Of a stretch of DNA of 64,000 nt, positions 10,381 to 32,947 are shown piece by piece. Below the pieces are notes generated by a model, which was not told where the DNA came from, did not search any database, and saw only the letters and a list, made by a program, of their open reading frames with translations. Made by a program: the position numbers and the translations under genes. This DNA is from Candidatus Woesearchaeota archaeon (lineage in GTDB: Archaea; Nanobdellota; Nanobdellia; Woesearchaeales; JAZDKJ01). Every line of letters starts with the position of its first letter. Positions within the stretch are counted from its first letter, which is position 1. The stretch is from the NCBI GenBank assembly GCA_043803105.1, contig JAZDKJ010000013.1, positions 32,001 to 96,000 of the forward strand. Reading direction: 5' to 3'.

Positions 10381-11733
10381 ATGGGCATGAAAAAAACGCT
10401 ATTTGGCACTGATGGTATGAGAGGGATAGCAAATATACACCCCATGACTCCAGAGGTTGTGGTGCGGCTAGGAAAGGCAATAGTTGAAGCGCTGAAAAAT
10501 GGCACAAGACCAAAAATACTGATAGGAAAAGACACAAGATTAAGCGGCTATATGCTTGAGTCTGCACTCACAACAGGAATCTGTTCAATGGGAGGGGATG
10601 TGCTACTTGTCGGACCAATGCCTACACCAGCAATTGCGCACCTCACAAGGTCTTTTGCAGCTGACGCAGGAGTAGTCATCTCTGCATCACACAATCCGTG
10701 GGAGCACAACGGAATCAAGATTTTCTCAAGCAAGGGAATAAAACTTCCTGATGATATTGAATTAAGACTGGAACAACTGATGATAAAAGACGCAAGAAAT
10801 GAGCATGTGCAAGGAATTGCTATAGGCAAAGCAAAAAGGATAGACGACGCGAAAGGCCGCTACATAGAGTTTGCCAAGGCAGCCATAGACAATTTCCCCC
10901 TGCAAGGGCTAAAGGTTGTGCTTGACTGCGCAAACGGAGCAGCTTATGACATAACACCGCACATACTCCAGGAACTTGGGGCAGAGGTAATAATAATGTT
11001 CAACGAGCCAAACGGAACAAACATCAACAAGGAGTGCGGCTCACTGCATCCTGAGGTAATGCAACAAGCGGTGCTCAAACACAAAGCAGACCTTGGCATA
11101 GCACTTGACGGTGATGCTGACAGGGTCATAATGGCTGACGAAAAAGGAAACCTTGTGGACGGAGACCACCTGATGGCAATAATAGCGCTAGACCTCAAGG
11201 AAAAGAAGCAGCTAAAAAAGGATACGGTTGTAGGCACAGTGATGACAAACAAGGGACTAGAGCTGTACCTGAAGAAACAGGGAATAAGCCTGGTCAGGAC
11301 GAATGTAGGAGACCCTTACATAGTTGAGGAGATGCTTAAAAACGGCTACAATTTCGGGGGAGAACAATCAGGGCACATAATATGTTTTGACCATAACAGC
11401 ACACCTGATGCTACAATCACAAGCCTGTACATAATGAAAATAATGAAAGAAAAAGGGAAGAAACTGTCTGAACTCGGAACACTTTTCAAGTCAATGCCGC
11501 AGGTGCTCCTTAACAGCACGGTAAGAGAGAAGAGGGAGCTTGACAAGATGCCAAATGTAGTTAATACTATCAAGTCAGTTGAAAATGAGCTTGGAGAGGC
11601 AGGAAGGGTGCTTGTAAGGTATTCTGGGACAGAAAACAAGGTAAGGGTCATGATAGAAGGAGAAAATATGCAGAAGATAGAAGCGTACGCACAAGACATC
11701 ATGACAACGATACGAAAGGAGCTGGGAGATTGA
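10381..11733 (+). CDS. glmM: Phosphoglucosamine mutase
   Basis: Motifs FGTDGMRG, GKDTRLSG, ISASHNP, DGDADR, GGEQSGH, RYSGTE. Confidence 0.95.
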   Translation: MGMKKTLFGTDGMRGIANIHPMTPEVVVRLGKAIVEALKNGTRPKILIGKDTRLSGYMLESALTTGICSMGGDVLLVGPMPTPAIAHLTRSFAADAGVVISASHNPWEHNGIKIFSSKGIKLPDDIELRLEQLMIKDARNEHVQGIAIGKAKRIDDAKGRYIEFAKAAIDNFPLQGLKVVLDCANGAAYDITPHILQELGAEVIIMFNEPNGTNINKECGSLHPEVMQQAVLKHKADLGIALDGDADRVIMADEKGNLVDGDHLMAIIALDLKEKKQLKKDTVVGTVMTNKGLELYLKKQGISLVRTNVGDPYIVEEMLKNGYNFGGEQSGHIICFDHNSTPDATITSLYIMKIMKEKGKKLSELGTLFKSMPQVLLNSTVREKRELDKMPNVVNTIKSVENELGEAGRVLVRYSGTENKVRVMIEGENMQKIEAYAQDIMTTIRKELGD

Positions 11734-12914
11734 AGGCTGTAATACTTTGCGCAGGCAAGTCAACAAGGACATATCCATTTACAATCTCAAAACCAAAGGC
11801 ATTGCTTCCGATCCTAGACAAGACCTTAATTGAGGTCAGCATTGAGAGCCTGAAGGGAATTGCTGAGGAGGTCATAATTGTAGTAGGATGTTTGAAAGAA
11901 CAAATAATTGAACACCTGGGGAGCACATACCAAGGAATAAAGATAACATATGTTGAACAAAAAGAGCAGCTGGGGACAGGCCATGCGCTCATGCAAGCCA
12001 GGAGCCAACTGACTGGAAAATTTTTGGTGCTGAACGGAGACGACATATACTCACCAAAAGATATCCTAAACTGTGCAAAGCATGACAGATGCCTGCTTGG
12101 CAAAGAGGTGGAGGACCCGGAAAAATGGGGAATCCTTCTCACTGAAGGTAAAGCGCTCAAAGGAATCCAAGAAAAACCTACAGAACCGTTATCAAACATT
12201 GGCAACACAGGCTTGTACGTTCTAGACAAGAACATTTTCCCATATCTGGAAAAAACAGGAAAGAGCGAGAGAGGGGAAATAGAAATAACATCAGCCATCA
12301 GCGAAATGTGCAAAGAGCAAACATACATGGTTGAAAAAATCCAAGATTACTGGTTACCAGTAAGCTATCCATGGCAACTGCTTGAGGCAAACGCATTTTT
12401 TCTAGAAAAGATAAGCCAAAGCAACATCAAGGGCATAGTCGAAGCGCATGTAACAATGAGAGGGGTTGTTGTGCTAAGAGAAAAAAGCATAATCAAATCA
12501 GGATGTTACTTGGAAGGGCCTGTATGGATAGGCAAAGACTGTGTAGTGGGCCCGAATGCATACCTGAGAAAAGACACCATACTCCTAGACAATGTGAGAA
12601 CAAGGTCAGAGATAGTAGACTCACTTATCATGAAAGGAACAACAGCAAAGCACCACAGCTATATAGGGCACTCAATCGTTGGCGAGAACTGCAACATAGG
12701 AGCAGGAACGATCACATCAGACTACAGACACGATGGAGCTACCAACAAAACTATAATCCAAGGAAAAAAAGTTGACAGCAACAGGAGGAAACTTGGTGCG
12801 TTCATAGGTGATGGTGTGCATACTGGGATTAACACAAGCATTTATCCCGGAAGGAAAATATGGCCAGGAAAGACAACTGTTCCAGGGGAAATAGTCAAAG
12901 AAGACATAATGTAA
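11730..12914 (+). CDS. glmU: Bifunctional sugar-1-P nucleotidyltransferase/acetyltransferase (archaeal GlmU)
   Basis: AGKSTR..PK NTase domain plus hexapeptide repeats; YIGHSIVG, RKLGAFIGD. Confidence 0.88.
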   Translation: MKAVILCAGKSTRTYPFTISKPKALLPILDKTLIEVSIESLKGIAEEVIIVVGCLKEQIIEHLGSTYQGIKITYVEQKEQLGTGHALMQARSQLTGKFLVLNGDDIYSPKDILNCAKHDRCLLGKEVEDPEKWGILLTEGKALKGIQEKPTEPLSNIGNTGLYVLDKNIFPYLEKTGKSERGEIEITSAISEMCKEQTYMVEKIQDYWLPVSYPWQLLEANAFFLEKISQSNIKGIVEAHVTMRGVVVLREKSIIKSGCYLEGPVWIGKDCVVGPNAYLRKDTILLDNVRTRSEIVDSLIMKGTTAKHHSYIGHSIVGENCNIGAGTITSDYRHDGATNKTIIQGKKVDSNRRKLGAFIGDGVHTGINTSIYPGRKIWPGKTTVPGEIVKEDIM

Positions 12915-12915
12915 A

Positions 12916-14085
12916 ATGTGCGGAATCATAGCATACAAAGGAAATGAGCAGGCAAGCAAGATAATTCTCGAAGGGCTGCAGAATCTTGAATACAGGGGAT
13001 ATGACTCAGTGGGAATTGCAACAATAGATGCTGGCAAATTACAGGTACAAAAAGAAATTGGGAAAGTGCAAGATACGCAGCTCGATTTTGAGAGCATGAA
13101 GGGAACGATGGGAATGGGCCATAAAAGGTGGGCTAAGATAAAGTACTTAAGTAAACAAAACATTCCAATTACCCAAATGAGTAAACCATTTTTTCGGATG
13201 GTTGATTTAGCACTCGAAAATCCACAGTTATATTACGTTGAGATAGACGAGAATTTACGACACTTGATTGGATTGAAAATACTGAGAGTTAGTTCAATCA
13301 TTGATAAGACCATGATTTCAAGAAAAAGCTTGTACAGAATAATGAAAAAATCCGGCCACTATTGCCGATTGGACACATTGTTGAAACTTGGTAAATCTAT
13401 CAATGTTAGCGGAAAGACTCTACATATTCATATAAAAAGTGTAAAGACCAAGAATAGTTTTCCAATAACAAATCAGAAATTGAGCCTTAATGAAGGCTTT
13501 GCTCGCATTTTGGGTCATATCATTGGTGATGGAGGTATTCATATTGTTGTGAAAGAGAACAAGTACCGTATTTTTTATGTTAATAATGAAAAATTTTTGC
13601 TGAATTCATTCAAGACTGATGTGGTCAACTGCTTTGGAGAAACTAAGATATATAGCCGGCAAAGATTAGATCATGGAGACGAAGTTTGGCTACCATCTAC
13701 AATTGGTTCACTTATATACAGATTGCTGGATTTCAAAGCCGGTAATAAACAAGTTCCATCCATTGTCATGAGATGCAAGAATACAAAAGTTGTTGCAGCA
13801 TTCCTTCAGGCATTGTATGATGATGAAGGTTTTTTGTATCCGTCAAAGAAAATGATAGTGATATCACAGGTGGATCTACAATTAATCGAACAAATTAAGG
13901 AACTTGTATCCCGGCTTCAAATCAAAAGCAACAAAATCTTGGAACACAATTCGAAAAGTAGAAGTCTTATGTACTATTTTACGATAACGGGCAAACAAGA
14001 TATTCAGCGATTTAAGAACAAGATTGGATTCTTGCACCCTATCAAATCCAAGAAATTGTCCCTGCTAATGAAATCTTACAAGTGA
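12916..14085 (+). CDS. Fusion of GlmS residues 1-73 with an HTH and a two-motif LAGLIDADG (intein DOD-type) homing endonuclease
   Basis: MCGI..LEYRGYDSVG..GHKRWA, then ARILGHIIGDG, AFLQALYDDEG, FKNKIGF; no intein splicing motifs. Confidence 0.88.
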   Translation: MCGIIAYKGNEQASKIILEGLQNLEYRGYDSVGIATIDAGKLQVQKEIGKVQDTQLDFESMKGTMGMGHKRWAKIKYLSKQNIPITQMSKPFFRMVDLALENPQLYYVEIDENLRHLIGLKILRVSSIIDKTMISRKSLYRIMKKSGHYCRLDTLLKLGKSINVSGKTLHIHIKSVKTKNSFPITNQKLSLNEGFARILGHIIGDGGIHIVVKENKYRIFYVNNEKFLLNSFKTDVVNCFGETKIYSRQRLDHGDEVWLPSTIGSLIYRLLDFKAGNKQVPSIVMRCKNTKVVAAFLQALYDDEGFLYPSKKMIVISQVDLQLIEQIKELVSRLQIKSNKILEHNSKSRSLMYYFTITGKQDIQRFKNKIGFLHPIKSKKLSLLMKSYK

Positions 14086-14850
14086 AAAAAATGTGTGGTA
14101 TTGTAGCGTATCGTGGAATTAAACAAGCCAGTCCTTTACTATTGAAATGCCTTAGGCATCTAGAATATCGCGGGTATGACTCAGTTGGAATGGCAGTATT
14201 GAGCCATCAGGGAATAGAAGTCCGCAAAGAGGTGGGGAAGATTGATGAAGCTGACAAGCGAGCGCATTTTGAAGAATTGAAAGGAAATCTAGGAATGGCG
14301 CATACTCGTTGGAGCACCCATGGTGGTGTAACTCAAAAGAATGCGCATCCACACTTATCAGAGGATGGAAAGATTGCAGTTGTTCACAATGGGATTATCG
14401 AAAACTACCAATATCTAAGAGAATTCTTGAAGTCCAAGGGAATAGTATGTATGACTGACACTGATACAGAAGTTATACCTCATCTCATACAATACCATAT
14501 GCTGAATGGCCAGGATTTTAGAAAAGCATTTGTAACAAGTTTAAGAGAACTCGAGGGAAGCTTTGCTGTTGTTGCGATTCATAGTGACCATAATTTTATT
14601 CTTACGGCTCGTCGTGGCTCACCTCTTGTATTGGGTTTTAAAGATAATGAATTGTTCGCGGCATCTGACGTTCCGGCATTTCTGGAGTATACAAACAAAG
14701 TGATTTATCTTGAGGATGATGAATATGCTATTATGGCCAAGAGATTGGATGTTTTCAGCTTAAAAAATGATGAGTTACAAACCAAAGAACCTGTAACTAT
14801 CACATGGTCCATAGAGCAGGCAAGAAAGGGTGAGTATGCTCACTTTATGC
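13135..14850 (+). mobile_element. Putative homing cassette: endonuclease plus a foreign replacement glmS 5' half (right boundary approximate)
   Basis: T-ending codons and CGN Arg codons contrast with A/C-ending and AGR codons in flanking + strand genes; the glmS N-terminus is duplicated. Confidence 0.65.
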
Positions 14851-15857
14851 TAAAAGAGATTACAGAACAGAAAGAGACAATAAGAAAAGCAGCAGAACAA
14901 GACCCAAAGCTCATGGCACAAGTCAGCCAGATGCTCAAAGATGCATTTGGAATTTTCTTTGTGGGCTGCGGGACATCGTACCATGCCTGCGTGTCAGCAT
15001 CATACCAATTCGCAGAAATAGCTAAGAAGCATGTAAACGTTATACTGGCATCAGAATTCAGGAATTATGAGAGCTTTCTGACAGACAAGACAGTGATGGT
15101 AGCACTTTCGCAATCTGGAGAGACAGCGGACACAATAGAAGCAATAAAGACAGCAAAAAAGCATGGGACCAAGATAATAACTATAGTGAATGTAATGGGG
15201 TCAACAATAACAAGGCTCTCAGACGTGAACATAATGACGCATTCGGGACCTGAAATATGCGTACTTTCGACCAAAAGCTACACAGCACAGCTCGCGATAC
15301 TCCTAAGCTTGGCATACAATGTGGCAGGAAGAGAGGCTGAAGGAAAAAAAGTGATTACAAAAGCTTCACTTGAGGTTGAAGGGCTGATCAAGGAGAACTT
15401 GACGCGGCTCAAGGCATTGGCAAAGCAATTGAAAGGCCAGCATGACATATTCCTAATAGGAAGAGACCTTGCATATCCCAGCGCTCTTGAAGGGGCACTC
15501 AAAATAAAGGAAGTCAGCTATGTGCACGCAGAAGGGTTTGCAGGAGGAGAGCTAAAGCACGGCACAATAGCGCTAATAGAGCAAGGCATACCAGCAATAA
15601 TACTTGCGACTGAACACACAAGAAAGGAAATTGTATCAAACGCAATGGAAATCAAGGCAAGGGGAGGATACATAATAGGGATAGACTCAGAGCCAAACGA
15701 TGTCTACGACTATCACATTAAAGTGGCTGAAGCAGGAATGGCAAACCCTATCTTGATGATAATACCTTTGCAAATACTTGCATACTACCTTGCACTAGAG
15801 CGGGGCTGCGACCCTGACAAGCCCAGAAACCTTGCAAAAAGCGTTACAGTAAAATAA
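14091..15857 (+). CDS. glmS: Glutamine-fructose-6-phosphate transaminase (isomerizing)
   Basis: MCG start (Ntn Cys), LEYRGYDS, HTRWSTHG, HFMLKEI, SQSGET, ELKHG, PRNLAKSVTV. Confidence 0.97.
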   Translation: MCGIVAYRGIKQASPLLLKCLRHLEYRGYDSVGMAVLSHQGIEVRKEVGKIDEADKRAHFEELKGNLGMAHTRWSTHGGVTQKNAHPHLSEDGKIAVVHNGIIENYQYLREFLKSKGIVCMTDTDTEVIPHLIQYHMLNGQDFRKAFVTSLRELEGSFAVVAIHSDHNFILTARRGSPLVLGFKDNELFAASDVPAFLEYTNKVIYLEDDEYAIMAKRLDVFSLKNDELQTKEPVTITWSIEQARKGEYAHFMLKEITEQKETIRKAAEQDPKLMAQVSQMLKDAFGIFFVGCGTSYHACVSASYQFAEIAKKHVNVILASEFRNYESFLTDKTVMVALSQSGETADTIEAIKTAKKHGTKIITIVNVMGSTITRLSDVNIMTHSGPEICVLSTKSYTAQLAILLSLAYNVAGREAEGKKVITKASLEVEGLIKENLTRLKALAKQLKGQHDIFLIGRDLAYPSALEGALKIKEVSYVHAEGFAGGELKHGTIALIEQGIPAIILATEHTRKEIVSNAMEIKARGGYIIGIDSEPNDVYDYHIKVAEAGMANPILMIIPLQILAYYLALERGCDPDKPRNLAKSVTVK

Positions 15858-31961: not shown

Positions 31962-32947
31962 TTTGGATGAGCCTCATACCAATCAAAGGTGAGCTTTAGG
32001 CCCTGTTCAATACCGGTCTTTGGAATCCAGCCCACAAGCTGCTTTATCTTTGAGATGTCTGCCAACCTTCGCTTCACACTACCTGTGAGGCCTTGCTTGA
32101 CATCAATTTTTTTCGGGGTCCAGCCAGTAAGCTGAAACATCTTTTTTGCAAGGTCAAGCATTGTTATCTCATCAGTGTTGCCAATGTGAACAGTCTCAAT
32201 TGGCTGAGAATCAGTCTTTTTGGAATCCATGAGCATCTGCATGGCCTCGACCGCATCGTCAATGTAGCAAAAAGTCCTCGTTTCATCAGAACCATAAACT
32301 GCAAATGGATCACCTTTTTGTATTATCCTCAAACAGAATTCCGGGATCACATGGTCGTAGCCTGCACGTGGGCCATAAAAATTGTGAGGCCTCACAATAA
32401 CAGCGGGGAAGTTGAAAGCCTTTGCATAGTGGATAACAAAGAGCTCTCCCACAAGCTTTGTTGATGCATAGCTCCAGCGCGCATTATATGGGTCGCTAAT
32501 CACAAGGGGAACCTTCTCTGGAGTGGGGATGGGCAATTTACCGAAGGACTCAAGGGCACTTGCATATGCCTCATTAGATGAGGTGAAACAAAGCTTTGGC
32601 TTGACCATAAGTGACTTAATCCACTCAAGGATATACACAAGAGTAAGTGTGTTTATGCGCAGAACCTCCTCAGGTATCTTGTAGAACAGCTTTGTGCCGT
32701 TTATTGCAGCAAGGTGATAAACATGCAAAAAGTCCTTATCAAGGGTTTCGTAGAAGGCCTGTTTGGTCAAGTCAGCCTCCATAAATTTCACCCTATCATT
32801 TTCAAGCAAGCCCCTGAAGTCATCATCCATCCTACCGCGCTGCAGATTGTCGACAATCACCAAATGATTATGTTTGTCCTTGAGCAGGTGAACTGCAAGA
32901 TGGTAACCAATAAATCCAGCACCGCCGGTAATCAGTATCTTCCTCAT
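31958..32947 (-). CDS. NAD-dependent nucleotide-sugar epimerase/decarboxylase (UXS/ArnA-like SDR)
   Basis: Motifs GGAGFIG, TSSNEAY, RWSYASTK, RPHNFYGP. Confidence 0.85.
   Translation of the reverse strand: MRKILITGGAGFIGYHLAVHLLKDKHNHLVIVDNLQRGRMDDDFRGLLENDRVKFMEADLTKQAFYETLDKDFLHVYHLAAINGTKLFYKIPEEVLRINTLTLVYILEWIKSLMVKPKLCFTSSNEAYASALESFGKLPIPTPEKVPLVISDPYNARWSYASTKLVGELFVIHYAKAFNFPAVIVRPHNFYGPRAGYDHVIPEFCLRIIQKGDPFAVYGSDETRTFCYIDDAVEAMQMLMDSKKTDSQPIETVHIGNTDEITMLDLAKKMFQLTGWTPKKIDVKQGLTGSVKRRLADISKIKQLVGWIPKTGIEQGLKLTFDWYEAHPK

Follow-up and report, generated by a model that had tools for sequence, protein, structure and literature searches.

How can an endonuclease gene occupy an essential gene when it is enclosed neither in an intron nor in an intein? 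The question is raised by the glmS locus in a 64,000-nucleotide stretch of DNA, referred to as the window, which comprises positions 32001–96000 of contig C13 (JAZDKJ010000013.1) in the genome of a Candidatus Woesearchaeota archaeon (assembly GCA_043803105.1; 1.56 Mb in 13 contigs; referred to as G000). Directly upstream of its complete glmS, G000 carries an open reading frame (ORF) that starts as glmS and continues in frame as a LAGLIDADG nuclease. To our knowledge, homing endonucleases are thought to persist in essential genes only within self-splicing introns or inteins. Comparisons of the locus with its relatives indicate that it probably holds a free-standing LAGLIDADG homing-endonuclease cassette, which is neither an intron nor an intein and is specialised on glmS in DPANN archaea.

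Architecture of the glmS locus

The fusion ORF (12916–14085, forward strand) encodes 389 amino acids and joins GlmS residues 1–73 in frame to a helix-turn-helix (HTH) domain and a double-LAGLIDADG nuclease. This organization had been proposed in a preliminary description of the window, and it is borne out by matches to glmS models and to the Pfam family LAGLIDADG_3. Residues 1–74 of the fusion match the NCBIfam glmS models PRK00331 (83.6 bits, E = 1.1e-23; profile positions 1–76) and TIGR01135 (E = 4.1e-23; profile positions 1–74). The 5′ stub of glmS (12916–13134, forward strand), which appears to be native to the host, comprises codons 1–73 (MCGI...GHKRWA) and forms the leader of the nuclease ORF. 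At the left junction (13132–13137, forward strand), the stub codon GCT for Ala73 is followed by AAG, the first non-GlmS codon, and the putative insertion point is located within ...CGN TGG GCN/ACN CAY GG, where the slash marks the junction, as it does throughout. The nuclease part (13135–14085, forward strand) consists of 316 amino acids and the stop codon TGA at 14083–14085. It starts with a disordered linker, followed by the HTH domain (about 13252–13410), and contains a conserved internal methionine (M95, 13198–13200) and the two LAGLIDADG motifs ILGHIIGDGG (about 13504–13533) and FLQALYDDEG (about 13801–13830), all on the forward strand. The fusion ORF lacks the intein splicing blocks, as had been stated previously: a lysine follows GHKRWA, the C-terminus ...KSYK is devoid of the HN dipeptide, and there is no match to a Hint domain.

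The complete glmS, which starts with MCG of its own as described previously, is separated from the nuclease stop codon by the 5-nt spacer aaaaa (14086–14090, forward strand), and a weak Shine-Dalgarno (SD)-like GTGA overlaps the stop codon. The gene (14091–15857, forward strand, ATG at 14091) encodes 588 amino acids with a glutaminase domain and two SIS domains. The protein scores 683.9 bits with one NCBIfam model (cut-off 381), covering profile positions 1–600 of 601, and 665.2 bits with a second model (cut-off 418.05). It also matches Pfam families GATase_6/7, and SIS in two stretches. The stub and the N-terminus of the 588-residue GlmS are 46% identical (39/84, E = 2e-23; protein range 46–51%). 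The corresponding DNA segments are 63% identical, and their longest common exact run is 11 nt. The homologue of the putative target site in the 588-residue glmS (14298–14324, forward strand) reads AHTRWSTHG, with TGG AGC ACC replacing TGG GCA ACC. A compositionally foreign tract (13135–14846, forward strand) spans the nuclease and the first approximately 250 codons of glmS. In a search of the G000 genome, neither another glmS nor another close copy of the nuclease was found. G000 has just one further LAGLIDADG-like frame (locus L002, C10:1338–2027, reverse strand), which belongs to a 312-residue open frame, is 28% identical (E = 8.9e-4), and is not near glmS.

The nuclease has a duplicated LAGLIDADG fold

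Residues 292–371 of the fusion ORF match Pfam LAGLIDADG_3 (E = 3.2e-13), and residues 113–165 give weak matches to Pfam HTH families. The scan with hidden Markov models suggested in the preliminary description thus had the outcome expected there, with LAGLIDADG_3 found and Hint absent in the fusion ORF. Residues D132, G133, and G134 of motif 1 and D229 and D230 of motif 2 are invariant in 42/42 aligned family members. A Pfam scan of the same 42 members detected LAGLIDADG_3 in all of them, HTH_26 in 16, and HTH_3 in eight, and a Hint or intein-splicing family in none.

An AlphaFold2 (AF2) model built from the 42-member alignment has a mean predicted local distance difference test (pLDDT) score of 92.2 and a predicted template modelling (pTM) score of 0.88, and only 15 residues after the junction are disordered in it. 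Foldseek aligns the model with the whole of I-DmoI (probability 1.00, TM-score by target 0.67–0.76), and also with the nuclease domains of the inteins PI-PkoII, TliVMA, PI-PfuI, and PI-SceI. The sole sequence-profile match in the PDB is PI-PkoII (E = 7.6e-6). The model and the Foldseek matches show the duplicated alpha-beta-beta-alpha-beta-beta-alpha core of LAGLIDADG proteins. Because of its motifs, Foldseek matches, and Pfam results, the nuclease is predicted to be a single-chain double-motif LAGLIDADG enzyme with an N-terminal HTH domain, which presumably cuts DNA. It looks intact, as judged from the invariant residues of the catalytic motifs, the confidently predicted model, and the fold common to I-DmoI and intein nuclease domains.

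The arrangement recurs in related archaea

The nuclease part has 44 homologues of 173–553 amino acids at E ≤ 1e-10, the source names of which mention Nanoarchaeota and Woesearchaeota. LAGLIDADG_3 is listed for all of them except P0043 and P0044. Many of the homologues open with a GlmS stub, MCGI[IV]GY...LEYRGYDS...GHxRWA, in frame with the nuclease. The nuclease of P0002, the closest relative, is 69% identical to that of G000, and P0002 has the same full-length stub and linker.

The alignment of 42 members was used to scan genome contigs and metagenome contigs. The genome contigs yielded 36 loci, 12 of them with E ≤ 4e-63, and in all these 12 the start of a full-length glmS lies −13 to +5 nt from the nuclease stop. 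The metagenome contigs yielded 73 loci, 20 of which are close; glmS lies directly downstream in 18/18 informative loci, and the other two end at a contig edge. When nucleases at least 40% identical are retained and clustered at 95% identity, 29 distinct cassette loci remain in Woesearchaeota and Nanoarchaeota assemblies, the host records being titled Woesearchaeota, Nanoarchaeota, and similar. The search of DPANN genomes for tandems of a stub–nuclease fusion and glmS, which the preliminary description had put forward, was therefore productive. Since the loci are related, all counts of them overstate independence.

The distance from the nuclease stop to the glmS start is −16 to +5 nt in 27/27 readable loci. 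A stub beginning with MCG is present in frame in 17 of the 25 loci with a readable 5′ side (12 distinct loci called in-frame and open by tblastn, and five known only by MCG in the nuclease frame), and all 17 stubs sit in the nuclease open frame and are free of stop codons. The stubs range in length from 73 amino acids down to MCGIFGYVGK (L078) or MCGI (L125). In 15/26 loci, an SD-like match 5 nt or longer is located at −18 to −3 of the glmS start, and is often formed by the last codons of the nuclease and its stop (AGGTGA); the match in G000 is only 4 nt long (GTGA). Stages of decay are visible in the shrinking stubs (73 to 4 amino acids) and in the nuclease remnant of L107. The latter (L107:4001–4105, JBDRKY010000012.1) is a 35-residue segment, 51% identical, positioned between glmU and glmS about 2.1 kb past glmU, and it looks like a decayed element. 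The glmS linked to it carries RWATCG.

The distribution of the nuclease is patchy. The only strong match among 60 relatives is in G046, a genome of the same order, in which a 337-residue member lies between a glmU-like gene and glmS and overlaps the glmS start by 13 nt. Among the relatives' glmS loci with upstream flanks, the nuclease is present in three (G046, G079, and G103) and absent in 40, including L069, for which there is hardly any upstream sequence. It is also absent in G001, a genome of the same genus, the glmM-glmU-glmS locus of which represents an empty allele of the kind that was to be looked for according to the preliminary description. Distant homologues, 23–35% identical, are beside glmS in 0/76 cases (0/23 for L084–L106 and 0/53 in metagenomes), and none of the weak matches in relatives (L006–L023) is beside glmS. 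Genomes G121 and G132 enter the order-sample tallies and identity rows only, and no claim is based on them.

A compositionally foreign tract reaches to about the end of the glutaminase domain

Upstream of the fusion ORF is an operon of glmM (10381–11733) and a glmU-like gene (11730–12914, forward strand), the stop of which is 1 nt before the stub start. The empty arrangement of G001 is glmM-glmU-glmS, where glmS likewise starts 1 nt after glmU and has the canonical GHTRWATHG. The glmU-like gene is 67% identical to G001 glmU in protein (tblastn) and 70% in DNA, and its composition is host-like.

Third codon positions in G000 are strongly asymmetric between the strands, and the local forward-strand genes have a skew between A and T at these positions (AT3 skew) of +0.30 to +0.50. 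The values are +0.30 for the stub, +0.44 for glmU, and +0.50 for glmS codons 251–588, compared with −0.01 for the nuclease and −0.10 for glmS codons 1–250. Given the strand asymmetry, genome-wide AT3 skew is misleading as a plain yardstick, and a strand-corrected test of local deviation was used instead: the GlmS N-domain ranks within the bottom 1.5% of 1089 strand-corrected genome windows, and the nuclease within the bottom 2.8%. A fit of two change-points to third-position A and T places the deviant segment at 13074–14846 (twice the log-likelihood difference, 2dlnL, 64), with bounds of 12770–13398 on the left and 14729–14879 on the right. A change-point scan on a coarser grid gave 62.2, compared with a maximum of 19.5 over 30 permutations. 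The GlmS N-domain of G001 has a host-like composition.

DNA identity between G000 and G001 is 0.70 in glmU, 0.68 in the stub (against G001 glmS codons 1–75), and 0.62 in the new codons 1–75. The identity profile remains at 0.59–0.63 until approximately 14900 and is 0.67–0.77 afterwards, with a dip to 0.60–0.61 at about 15276–15490. The likelihood ratio of native over foreign, calculated from A3 and T3, is 7.4 for the stub (A3/T3 26/14) and 0.011 for the new codons 1–75. The nearest protein match of the stub is the N-terminus of G001 GlmS (59–60%). These comparisons give moderate support to a native stub and stronger support to a foreign origin of the new glmS 5′ end. Because four tests of composition and identity agree, the imported piece appears to comprise the nuclease and roughly the whole glutaminase domain, about 250 codons. 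The fresh gene start recognized in the preliminary description is thus present as a replacement 5′ end, but its extent is larger than was assumed there. The domain boundary may simply be the end of a co-conversion tract, and the piece probably came from a related donor of the same broad clade.

The skew of G000 is approximately +0.3 on one strand and −0.3 on the other (C13, forward mean 0.29 and reverse mean −0.35; also C6). Its sign differs among contigs, and C7, C8, and C10 are mixed; these mixed contigs may mark the origin or terminus.

Variants of the putative target site and mobility of the nuclease

The stub–nuclease junction can be delimited in 10 distinct stubs of the family; in nine of these it is preceded by W-A, and in P0011 by W-D. 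Relatives without the nuclease have the site ...CAY ACN (AGA or CGN) TGG GCN ACN CAY GG, and the peptide is RWATHG in 27/39. In contrast, the canonical RWATHG occurs in 0/26 distinct nuclease-linked glmS copies (Fisher 2.9e-9, a value that overstates the difference, since the loci are kin and not independent). The linked copies have the forms RWSTHG (10), RWATTG (7), RWATCG (4), RWATNG (2), and RWSTTG, RWGTHG, and RWATMG (1 each). The changes fall on the two codons that flank the junction, and in G000 the change is from GCA to AGC. The variants match the protection expected from a nuclease centred on the junction, and may render the linked copies immune.

The identity of nucleases is uncorrelated with that of the GlmS proteins linked to them (Spearman 0.05–0.13; 0.05 for GlmS residues 1–75), compared with a correlation of 0.72 between GlmS residues 76–250 and the C-domain. 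The nucleases of L076 and L119 are 62% identical and their GlmS C-domains 39%, whereas the values for G000 and L079 are 44% and 70%. In the approximately unbiased (AU) test, the nuclease data reject the clades of the GlmS C-domain, with p-AU of 2.5e-5 for the three-row clade of G000 and 3.9e-5 for the ten-row clade. The clades were named from the GlmS C-domain tree before the nuclease tree was calculated, when the pairwise nuclease identities were already known. Because the nuclease tree rejects these clades and the GlmS N-domain does not, the nuclease gene appears to move between lineages, with the flanking glmS exchanged only locally.

The GlmS trees and tables omit L044 (masked stretch), L069 (partial), L070 (two frames), and the duplicates L079 (= L033) and L081 (= L052), and keep two G001 contig pieces as separate rows. 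The set of 22 cassette rows omits the cut or partial loci L082, L107, L115, L121, L125, L126, and L155, and the near-identical L108, L109, L113, L120, L123, and L124.

Proposed mechanism of glmS end replacement

The preliminary description interpreted the locus as a splicing-free cassette in which the nuclease is in frame from the old glmS start and a replacement 5′ end follows, and this anatomy is confirmed. The mobile unit would consist of the HTH-LAGLIDADG nuclease ORF and the replacement glmS 5′ end, inserted at the codon boundary RWA/THG of GHTRWATHG. The displaced native 5′ end, codons 1–73 in G000, would remain upstream as an in-frame leader, and the nuclease would therefore be translated from the start and operon position of the host gene. 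The conserved inner methionine (M95, 13198) could provide an alternative start of the nuclease. Since the replacement 5′ end begins a few nucleotides from the nuclease stop, complete GlmS could still be made by re-initiation at the stop-start junction. The nuclease would cut uninterrupted glmS near GCN/ACN, and substitutions at the junction codons of the linked copy (RWS, or T followed by C, N, T, or M in place of H) would block cleavage. The break would be repaired from the cassette allele, where the left homology is provided by the stub and the right homology by glmS beyond the site. Such repair would copy in the nuclease and the replacement 5′ end, and the flanking downstream glmS would be co-converted. 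Over time, the stub would shrink to MCGI... or vanish, and the nuclease would decay. From the sequences, we infer site-specific cleavage and its exact target, homing, initiation of the nuclease at the stub, coupled translation of the two ORFs, and immunity of the variant sites.

Several observations weigh against parts of this mechanism. A conserved methionine is present at the start of the nuclease core (M95) and 8/25 loci are stub-less, and for these reasons the nuclease should be expressible without the stub. Non-canonical sites occur also in 12/39 nuclease-less relatives, so that site variants are not exclusive to cassette carriers; these 12 genomes, some of which (G086 and G116) are near cassette carriers, may have lost the nuclease and kept the immune site. 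The stub-linker junction is common to G000 and P0002, which indicates that some stubs were inherited with the nuclease and not made anew in each homing event. The new GlmS N-domain of G000 groups with that of G001 in the protein tree (Shimodaira-Hasegawa-like approximate likelihood ratio test, SH-aLRT, 88; long branches), and the N-domains of the 22 cassettes do not reject the host clades (p-AU 0.40). There is therefore no sign, in these two analyses, of the gene 5′ end travelling long distances together with the nuclease. The import into G000 is indicated mainly by composition and by modest differences in DNA identity, and the left change-point is wide (12770–13398). In every pair, the GlmS N-domain evolves faster than the C-domain, and GlmS protein identity is therefore uninformative about the import: the N/C ratio is 0.72 in 13 pairs with G000 and 0.79 in 78 other pairs. 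Protein identity was accordingly dropped as proof of a foreign N-domain.

Alternative explanations

The cassette may be the same but the stub incidental, with translation of the nuclease starting at the internal M95 (13198). This is rather unlikely, although the methionine at the core start (MNILNFIK...) is conserved in most members, stub-bearing ones included, 8/25 loci are without a stub, and residues 1–15 past the junction are predicted to be disordered. However, the stubs are in frame and stop-free in 17/17 cases, a count in which the relatedness of the loci overstates independence, and the shortest stubs (L078 and L125) keep the exact MCGI, which fits selection on the start region better than neutral decay.

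It is improbable that the HTH-LAGLIDADG protein is a domesticated, immobile gene fixed beside glmS, for example as a WhiA-like regulator of glmMUS, with the stub as the scar of one ancient event. Such a role could account for the invariant position before glmS with tight coupling in 27/27 loci, the conserved N-terminal HTH, the stub-linker junction common to G000 and P0002, and a GlmS N-domain that follows host clades. Furthermore, the fold matches include WhiA, a transcription factor derived from a LAGLIDADG protein. However, WhiA has lost the catalytic acidic residues of the LAGLIDADG motifs, whereas those of both motifs are invariant in 42/42 members of the glmS-associated family. A fixed gene is also difficult to reconcile with absence of the nuclease from G001 and from 40/44 relatives' glmS loci (L069 being nearly without upstream sequence), with a nuclease tree that is strongly incongruent with the host gene tree, with the unameliorated foreign composition of the G000 tract, and with decayed copies such as L107. 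The site variants in 26/26 linked copies are what selection by a cutting enzyme would give.

The preliminary description considered the nuclease to be a GlmS intein that had lost its splicing domain in situ, the host having been rescued by a fresh gene 5′ end. Such an origin is slightly less probable still than domestication, and the claim is not upheld by the comparison with inteins. LAGLIDADG_3 is an intein-type Pfam family, the best PDB sequence match is PI-PkoII, and the best fold matches are intein nuclease domains. GlmS inteins are common: among the best 120 listed GlmS-like proteins of 1030–2940 amino acids, 108 have an insert followed by SRW, and many of the listed intein proteins carry Intein_splicing, LAGLIDADG_3, and HTH_3. 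The four GlmS inteins examined in full (P0045, P0046, P0077, and P0059), one of which is from Methanocaldococcus, have the form GH or AH/CL...HN/SRWATHG. In addition, a threonine, which is a possible +1 nucleophile, follows the junction in empty alleles. The intein site GH/S or T-RW given in the preliminary description is thus correct, but its near-equation with the cassette junction is not, since the junction RWA/ is located 4 codons (12 nt) downstream of GH/. The proximity of the two insertion points makes GHTRWATHG a double hotspot. The GlmS inteins among the listed proteins (P0045–P0164) are from archaea and, according to source names, from some bacteria (Omnitrophica, Patescibacteria, and Persephonella).

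The stubs extend four codons beyond GH/ and retain xRWA, unlike what is expected of an intein N-extein. The junction has no Cys or Ser, the nuclease has no terminal HN, and Hint or intein-splicing families are absent from all 42 members. Unlike an intein with its host gene, the nuclease is not part of one continuous ORF, as it ends with the stop at 14083–14085 and glmS restarts at its own Met-Cys. The family profile scores a median of 95 and a maximum of 179 bits with 84 free-standing HTH-LAGLIDADG frames from DPANN archaea and the candidate phyla radiation (CPR), which match it from the HTH region to the end, compared with a median of 32 and a maximum of 73 bits with 100 GlmS inteins, although the two sets were collected differently and the score race is not a fair one. 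The free-standing relatives have 309–420 amino acids and are 28–35% identical (L084, 35%, E = 1e-29), whereas the 12 best BLASTP matches to GlmS inteins have identities of 22–29% and a best E of 3e-11. There is no intein-sized glmS frame in any of the 99 glmS-bearing genomes of a 151-genome sample of the order. A search for longer proteins with the nuclease gave no match at E ≤ 1e-8, which is weak evidence. The missing Hint domain, the shifted junction, and the higher profile scores of free-standing proteins together make loss of splicing in place unlikely.

An assembly artefact, in which two glmS alleles and an unrelated nuclease contig were joined in a metagenome bin, might be suspected from the 13-contig assembly and the deviating composition of the tract, but it is very improbable: 29 distinct loci, drawn from independent assemblies and collections, have the identical order of parts, the independent protein P0002, with its 69% identical nuclease, also has the full-length stub fusion, the frame is kept across the left junction, and the spacing at the right junction is typical of the family.

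Comparison with known mobile elements

The free-standing HTH-LAGLIDADG proteins of DPANN archaea and CPR (L084–L099, L127–L150, and others) are the nearest relatives of the glmS cassette nuclease and have the same architecture of HTH and double LAGLIDADG. Some of them are also positioned just upstream of essential genes. They differ in that 0/76 are beside glmS, most have an extra C-terminal winged-helix-like tail, and no stub of the target gene was detected in them. The N-terminal similarity to the following ORF is 17.1, compared with 15.1 for shuffled pairs (sd 0.9, maximum 17.7), in a test of 55 complete relatives, of which 14 (12 distinct) have a tightly following ORF. Since this similarity is not clearly above that of shuffled pairs, a generalisation of the stub arrangement to other genes was rejected.

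The nearest free-standing relatives adjoin the 5′ side of essential-looking genes, and no clear stub is seen there. In L087 and L127, the nuclease stop is followed after 9 nt by a gene starting M[DE]KS..IK.FQKD.KKYWEVELF.EKGF, which we take to be AlaRS-like. The frame L011:1456–2652 ends 19 nt before a leucyl-tRNA-synthetase-like gene (2672), and L006:1312–2409 overlaps the start (2388) of a topoisomerase-I-like gene.

The cassette and GlmS inteins have in common the host gene and its conserved segment, with insertion points 12 nt apart, the LAGLIDADG_3 superfamily, and often an HTH domain. However, the inteins contain Hint (PF14890) and form a single uninterrupted ORF, whereas the cassette ends in a stop and needs a second copy of the gene end. 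In sequence, the two kinds of nuclease are remote relatives, and none of the GlmS inteins scored exceeds 73 bits with the family profile.

In the intronless homing of T4-like phages (seg and mob genes), a free-standing nuclease cuts a nearby gene in genomes without the nuclease gene. The nuclease gene spreads by double-strand-break repair with co-conversion, and its carrier is protected by target-site polymorphism. The phage homing endonuclease genes (HEGs) lie between genes or split genes into two subunits, belong to the GIY-YIG and HNH families, and are part of phage genomes. The repair logic, with co-conversion of flanks and protection of the target site, resembles that proposed for the glmS cassette. 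In contrast to the cassette, the phage HEGs have neither an in-frame stub of the target gene nor a replacement gene end.

The mobile ORFs (mORFs) of fungal mitochondria are the closest known analogue, of which the glmS cassette is a mirror image. They are described in PMC3630166 for atp6 of Allomyces macrogynus and for atp6, atp9, cox2, and nad3 of Glomus sp., where a LAGLIDADG or GIY-YIG ORF was inserted along with a foreign copy of the C-terminus, and the native C-terminus persists as a remnant. The parallel with fungal mitochondrial HEGs that duplicate gene ends, drawn in the preliminary description, is apt (PMC3630166). In both systems, an endonuclease ORF lies directly in a protein-coding gene, outside any intron or intein, and can share the phase of that gene; the host gene is kept whole by a foreign copy of its displaced end, the native remnant stays in place, and the duplicated ends are strongly diverged (PMC3630166). 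The glmS locus has the same elements, an endonuclease ORF and a duplicated gene end of which the duplicate in use is foreign and the remnant native, in mirrored orientation. In mORFs, the nuclease comes after the foreign 3′ end and is itself followed by the native one (PMC3630166). The glmS cassette, in contrast, replaces the 5′ end, so that the N-terminal remnant is fused before the nuclease and the gene restarts after it. Further differences are that the cassette is in an archaeal chromosome, in an essential gene embedded in an operon and not in an organelle, that its nuclease has an N-terminal HTH, and that its signals are prokaryotic (SD motif and stop-start coupling). Related fusions of rps3 with LAGLIDADG are mentioned in PMC7902536 and PMC5626475.

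A search of the main texts of openly accessible papers found no such arrangement described in archaea, in agreement with the preliminary description, which knew of none. A literature search for intein together with GF-6P found nothing.

Additional features of glmS loci

In the near-identical Woesearchaeota loci L073 and L108, a second, distant LAGLIDADG frame (L073:2653–3291 and L108:1142–1780; 25% identical to the G000 nuclease) lies about 0.7–0.9 kb upstream of the cassette, measured from match end to match start. The cassette-bearing MAG contigs of L075 and L079–L082 are titled “uncultured Methanosarcinales archaeon”; since their GlmS and nuclease sequences group with Woesearchaeota and Nanoarchaeia records, the titles are probably automatic mislabels.

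In L070 (G110:C103:36433–41003), glmS is present as two adjacent frames divided at the domain boundary, with about 20 nt between the matches; residues 1–247 are 45% and residues 251–588 are 67% identical to G000. The two frames may reflect a split gene, a frameshift, or recombination. The glmS frame of L071 (G021:C50) has 644 amino acids, with about 60 extra residues between G000 positions 51 and 64, just upstream of the hotspot. The long GlmS proteins P0126, P0128, and P0159 are without intein families and contain nucleotidyl-transferase and hexapeptide (GlmU-like) or phosphoglucomutase (GlmM-like) domains; they look like fused glmU-glmS and glmM-glmS genes.

Implications for glmS and its selfish elements

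Gene-end duplication, the known exception to confinement of homing endonucleases to introns and inteins, is seen in fungal mitochondria, and the glmS locus and its 28 relatives appear to follow the same principle, mirrored, in archaeal chromosomes. The old start of the gene would serve the parasite, and the new start, in G000 with the whole glutaminase domain, would go to the host. The further suggestion that DPANN archaea harbour actively homing “end-replacement” elements, a third lifestyle of HEGs in essential chromosomal protein genes beside introns and inteins, is tentative. If it is true, the element hijacks the start of the host gene for its own translation, and the synthesis of GlmS depends on ribosomes that complete the nuclease ORF, through stop-start coupling and an SD motif inside the nuclease gene. 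The host could therefore not silence the parasite without starving itself of GlmS. Homing would overwrite up to a whole catalytic domain, and the element would drive domain-level mosaicism of glmS. The cassette would also compete with the GlmS intein for the same 30-bp hotspot, and the relatives positioned before alaS-like, leuS, and topA genes may act likewise on other essential genes.

The arrangement calls for caution in glmS phylogeny, and in the use of gene callers that label the fusion as a hypothetical protein or “Xre regulator”. The family adds new single-chain LAGLIDADG enzymes with a putative target of the 20-bp class. The cassette may offer a natural system for studying a nuclease tied to the expression of an essential gene, and a mechanism by which a core metabolic gene of DPANN archaea could be replaced horizontally and become mosaic at the scale of domains. 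Two unrelated selfish elements, the intein and the cassette, would target sites 12 nt apart in one conserved motif of glmS.

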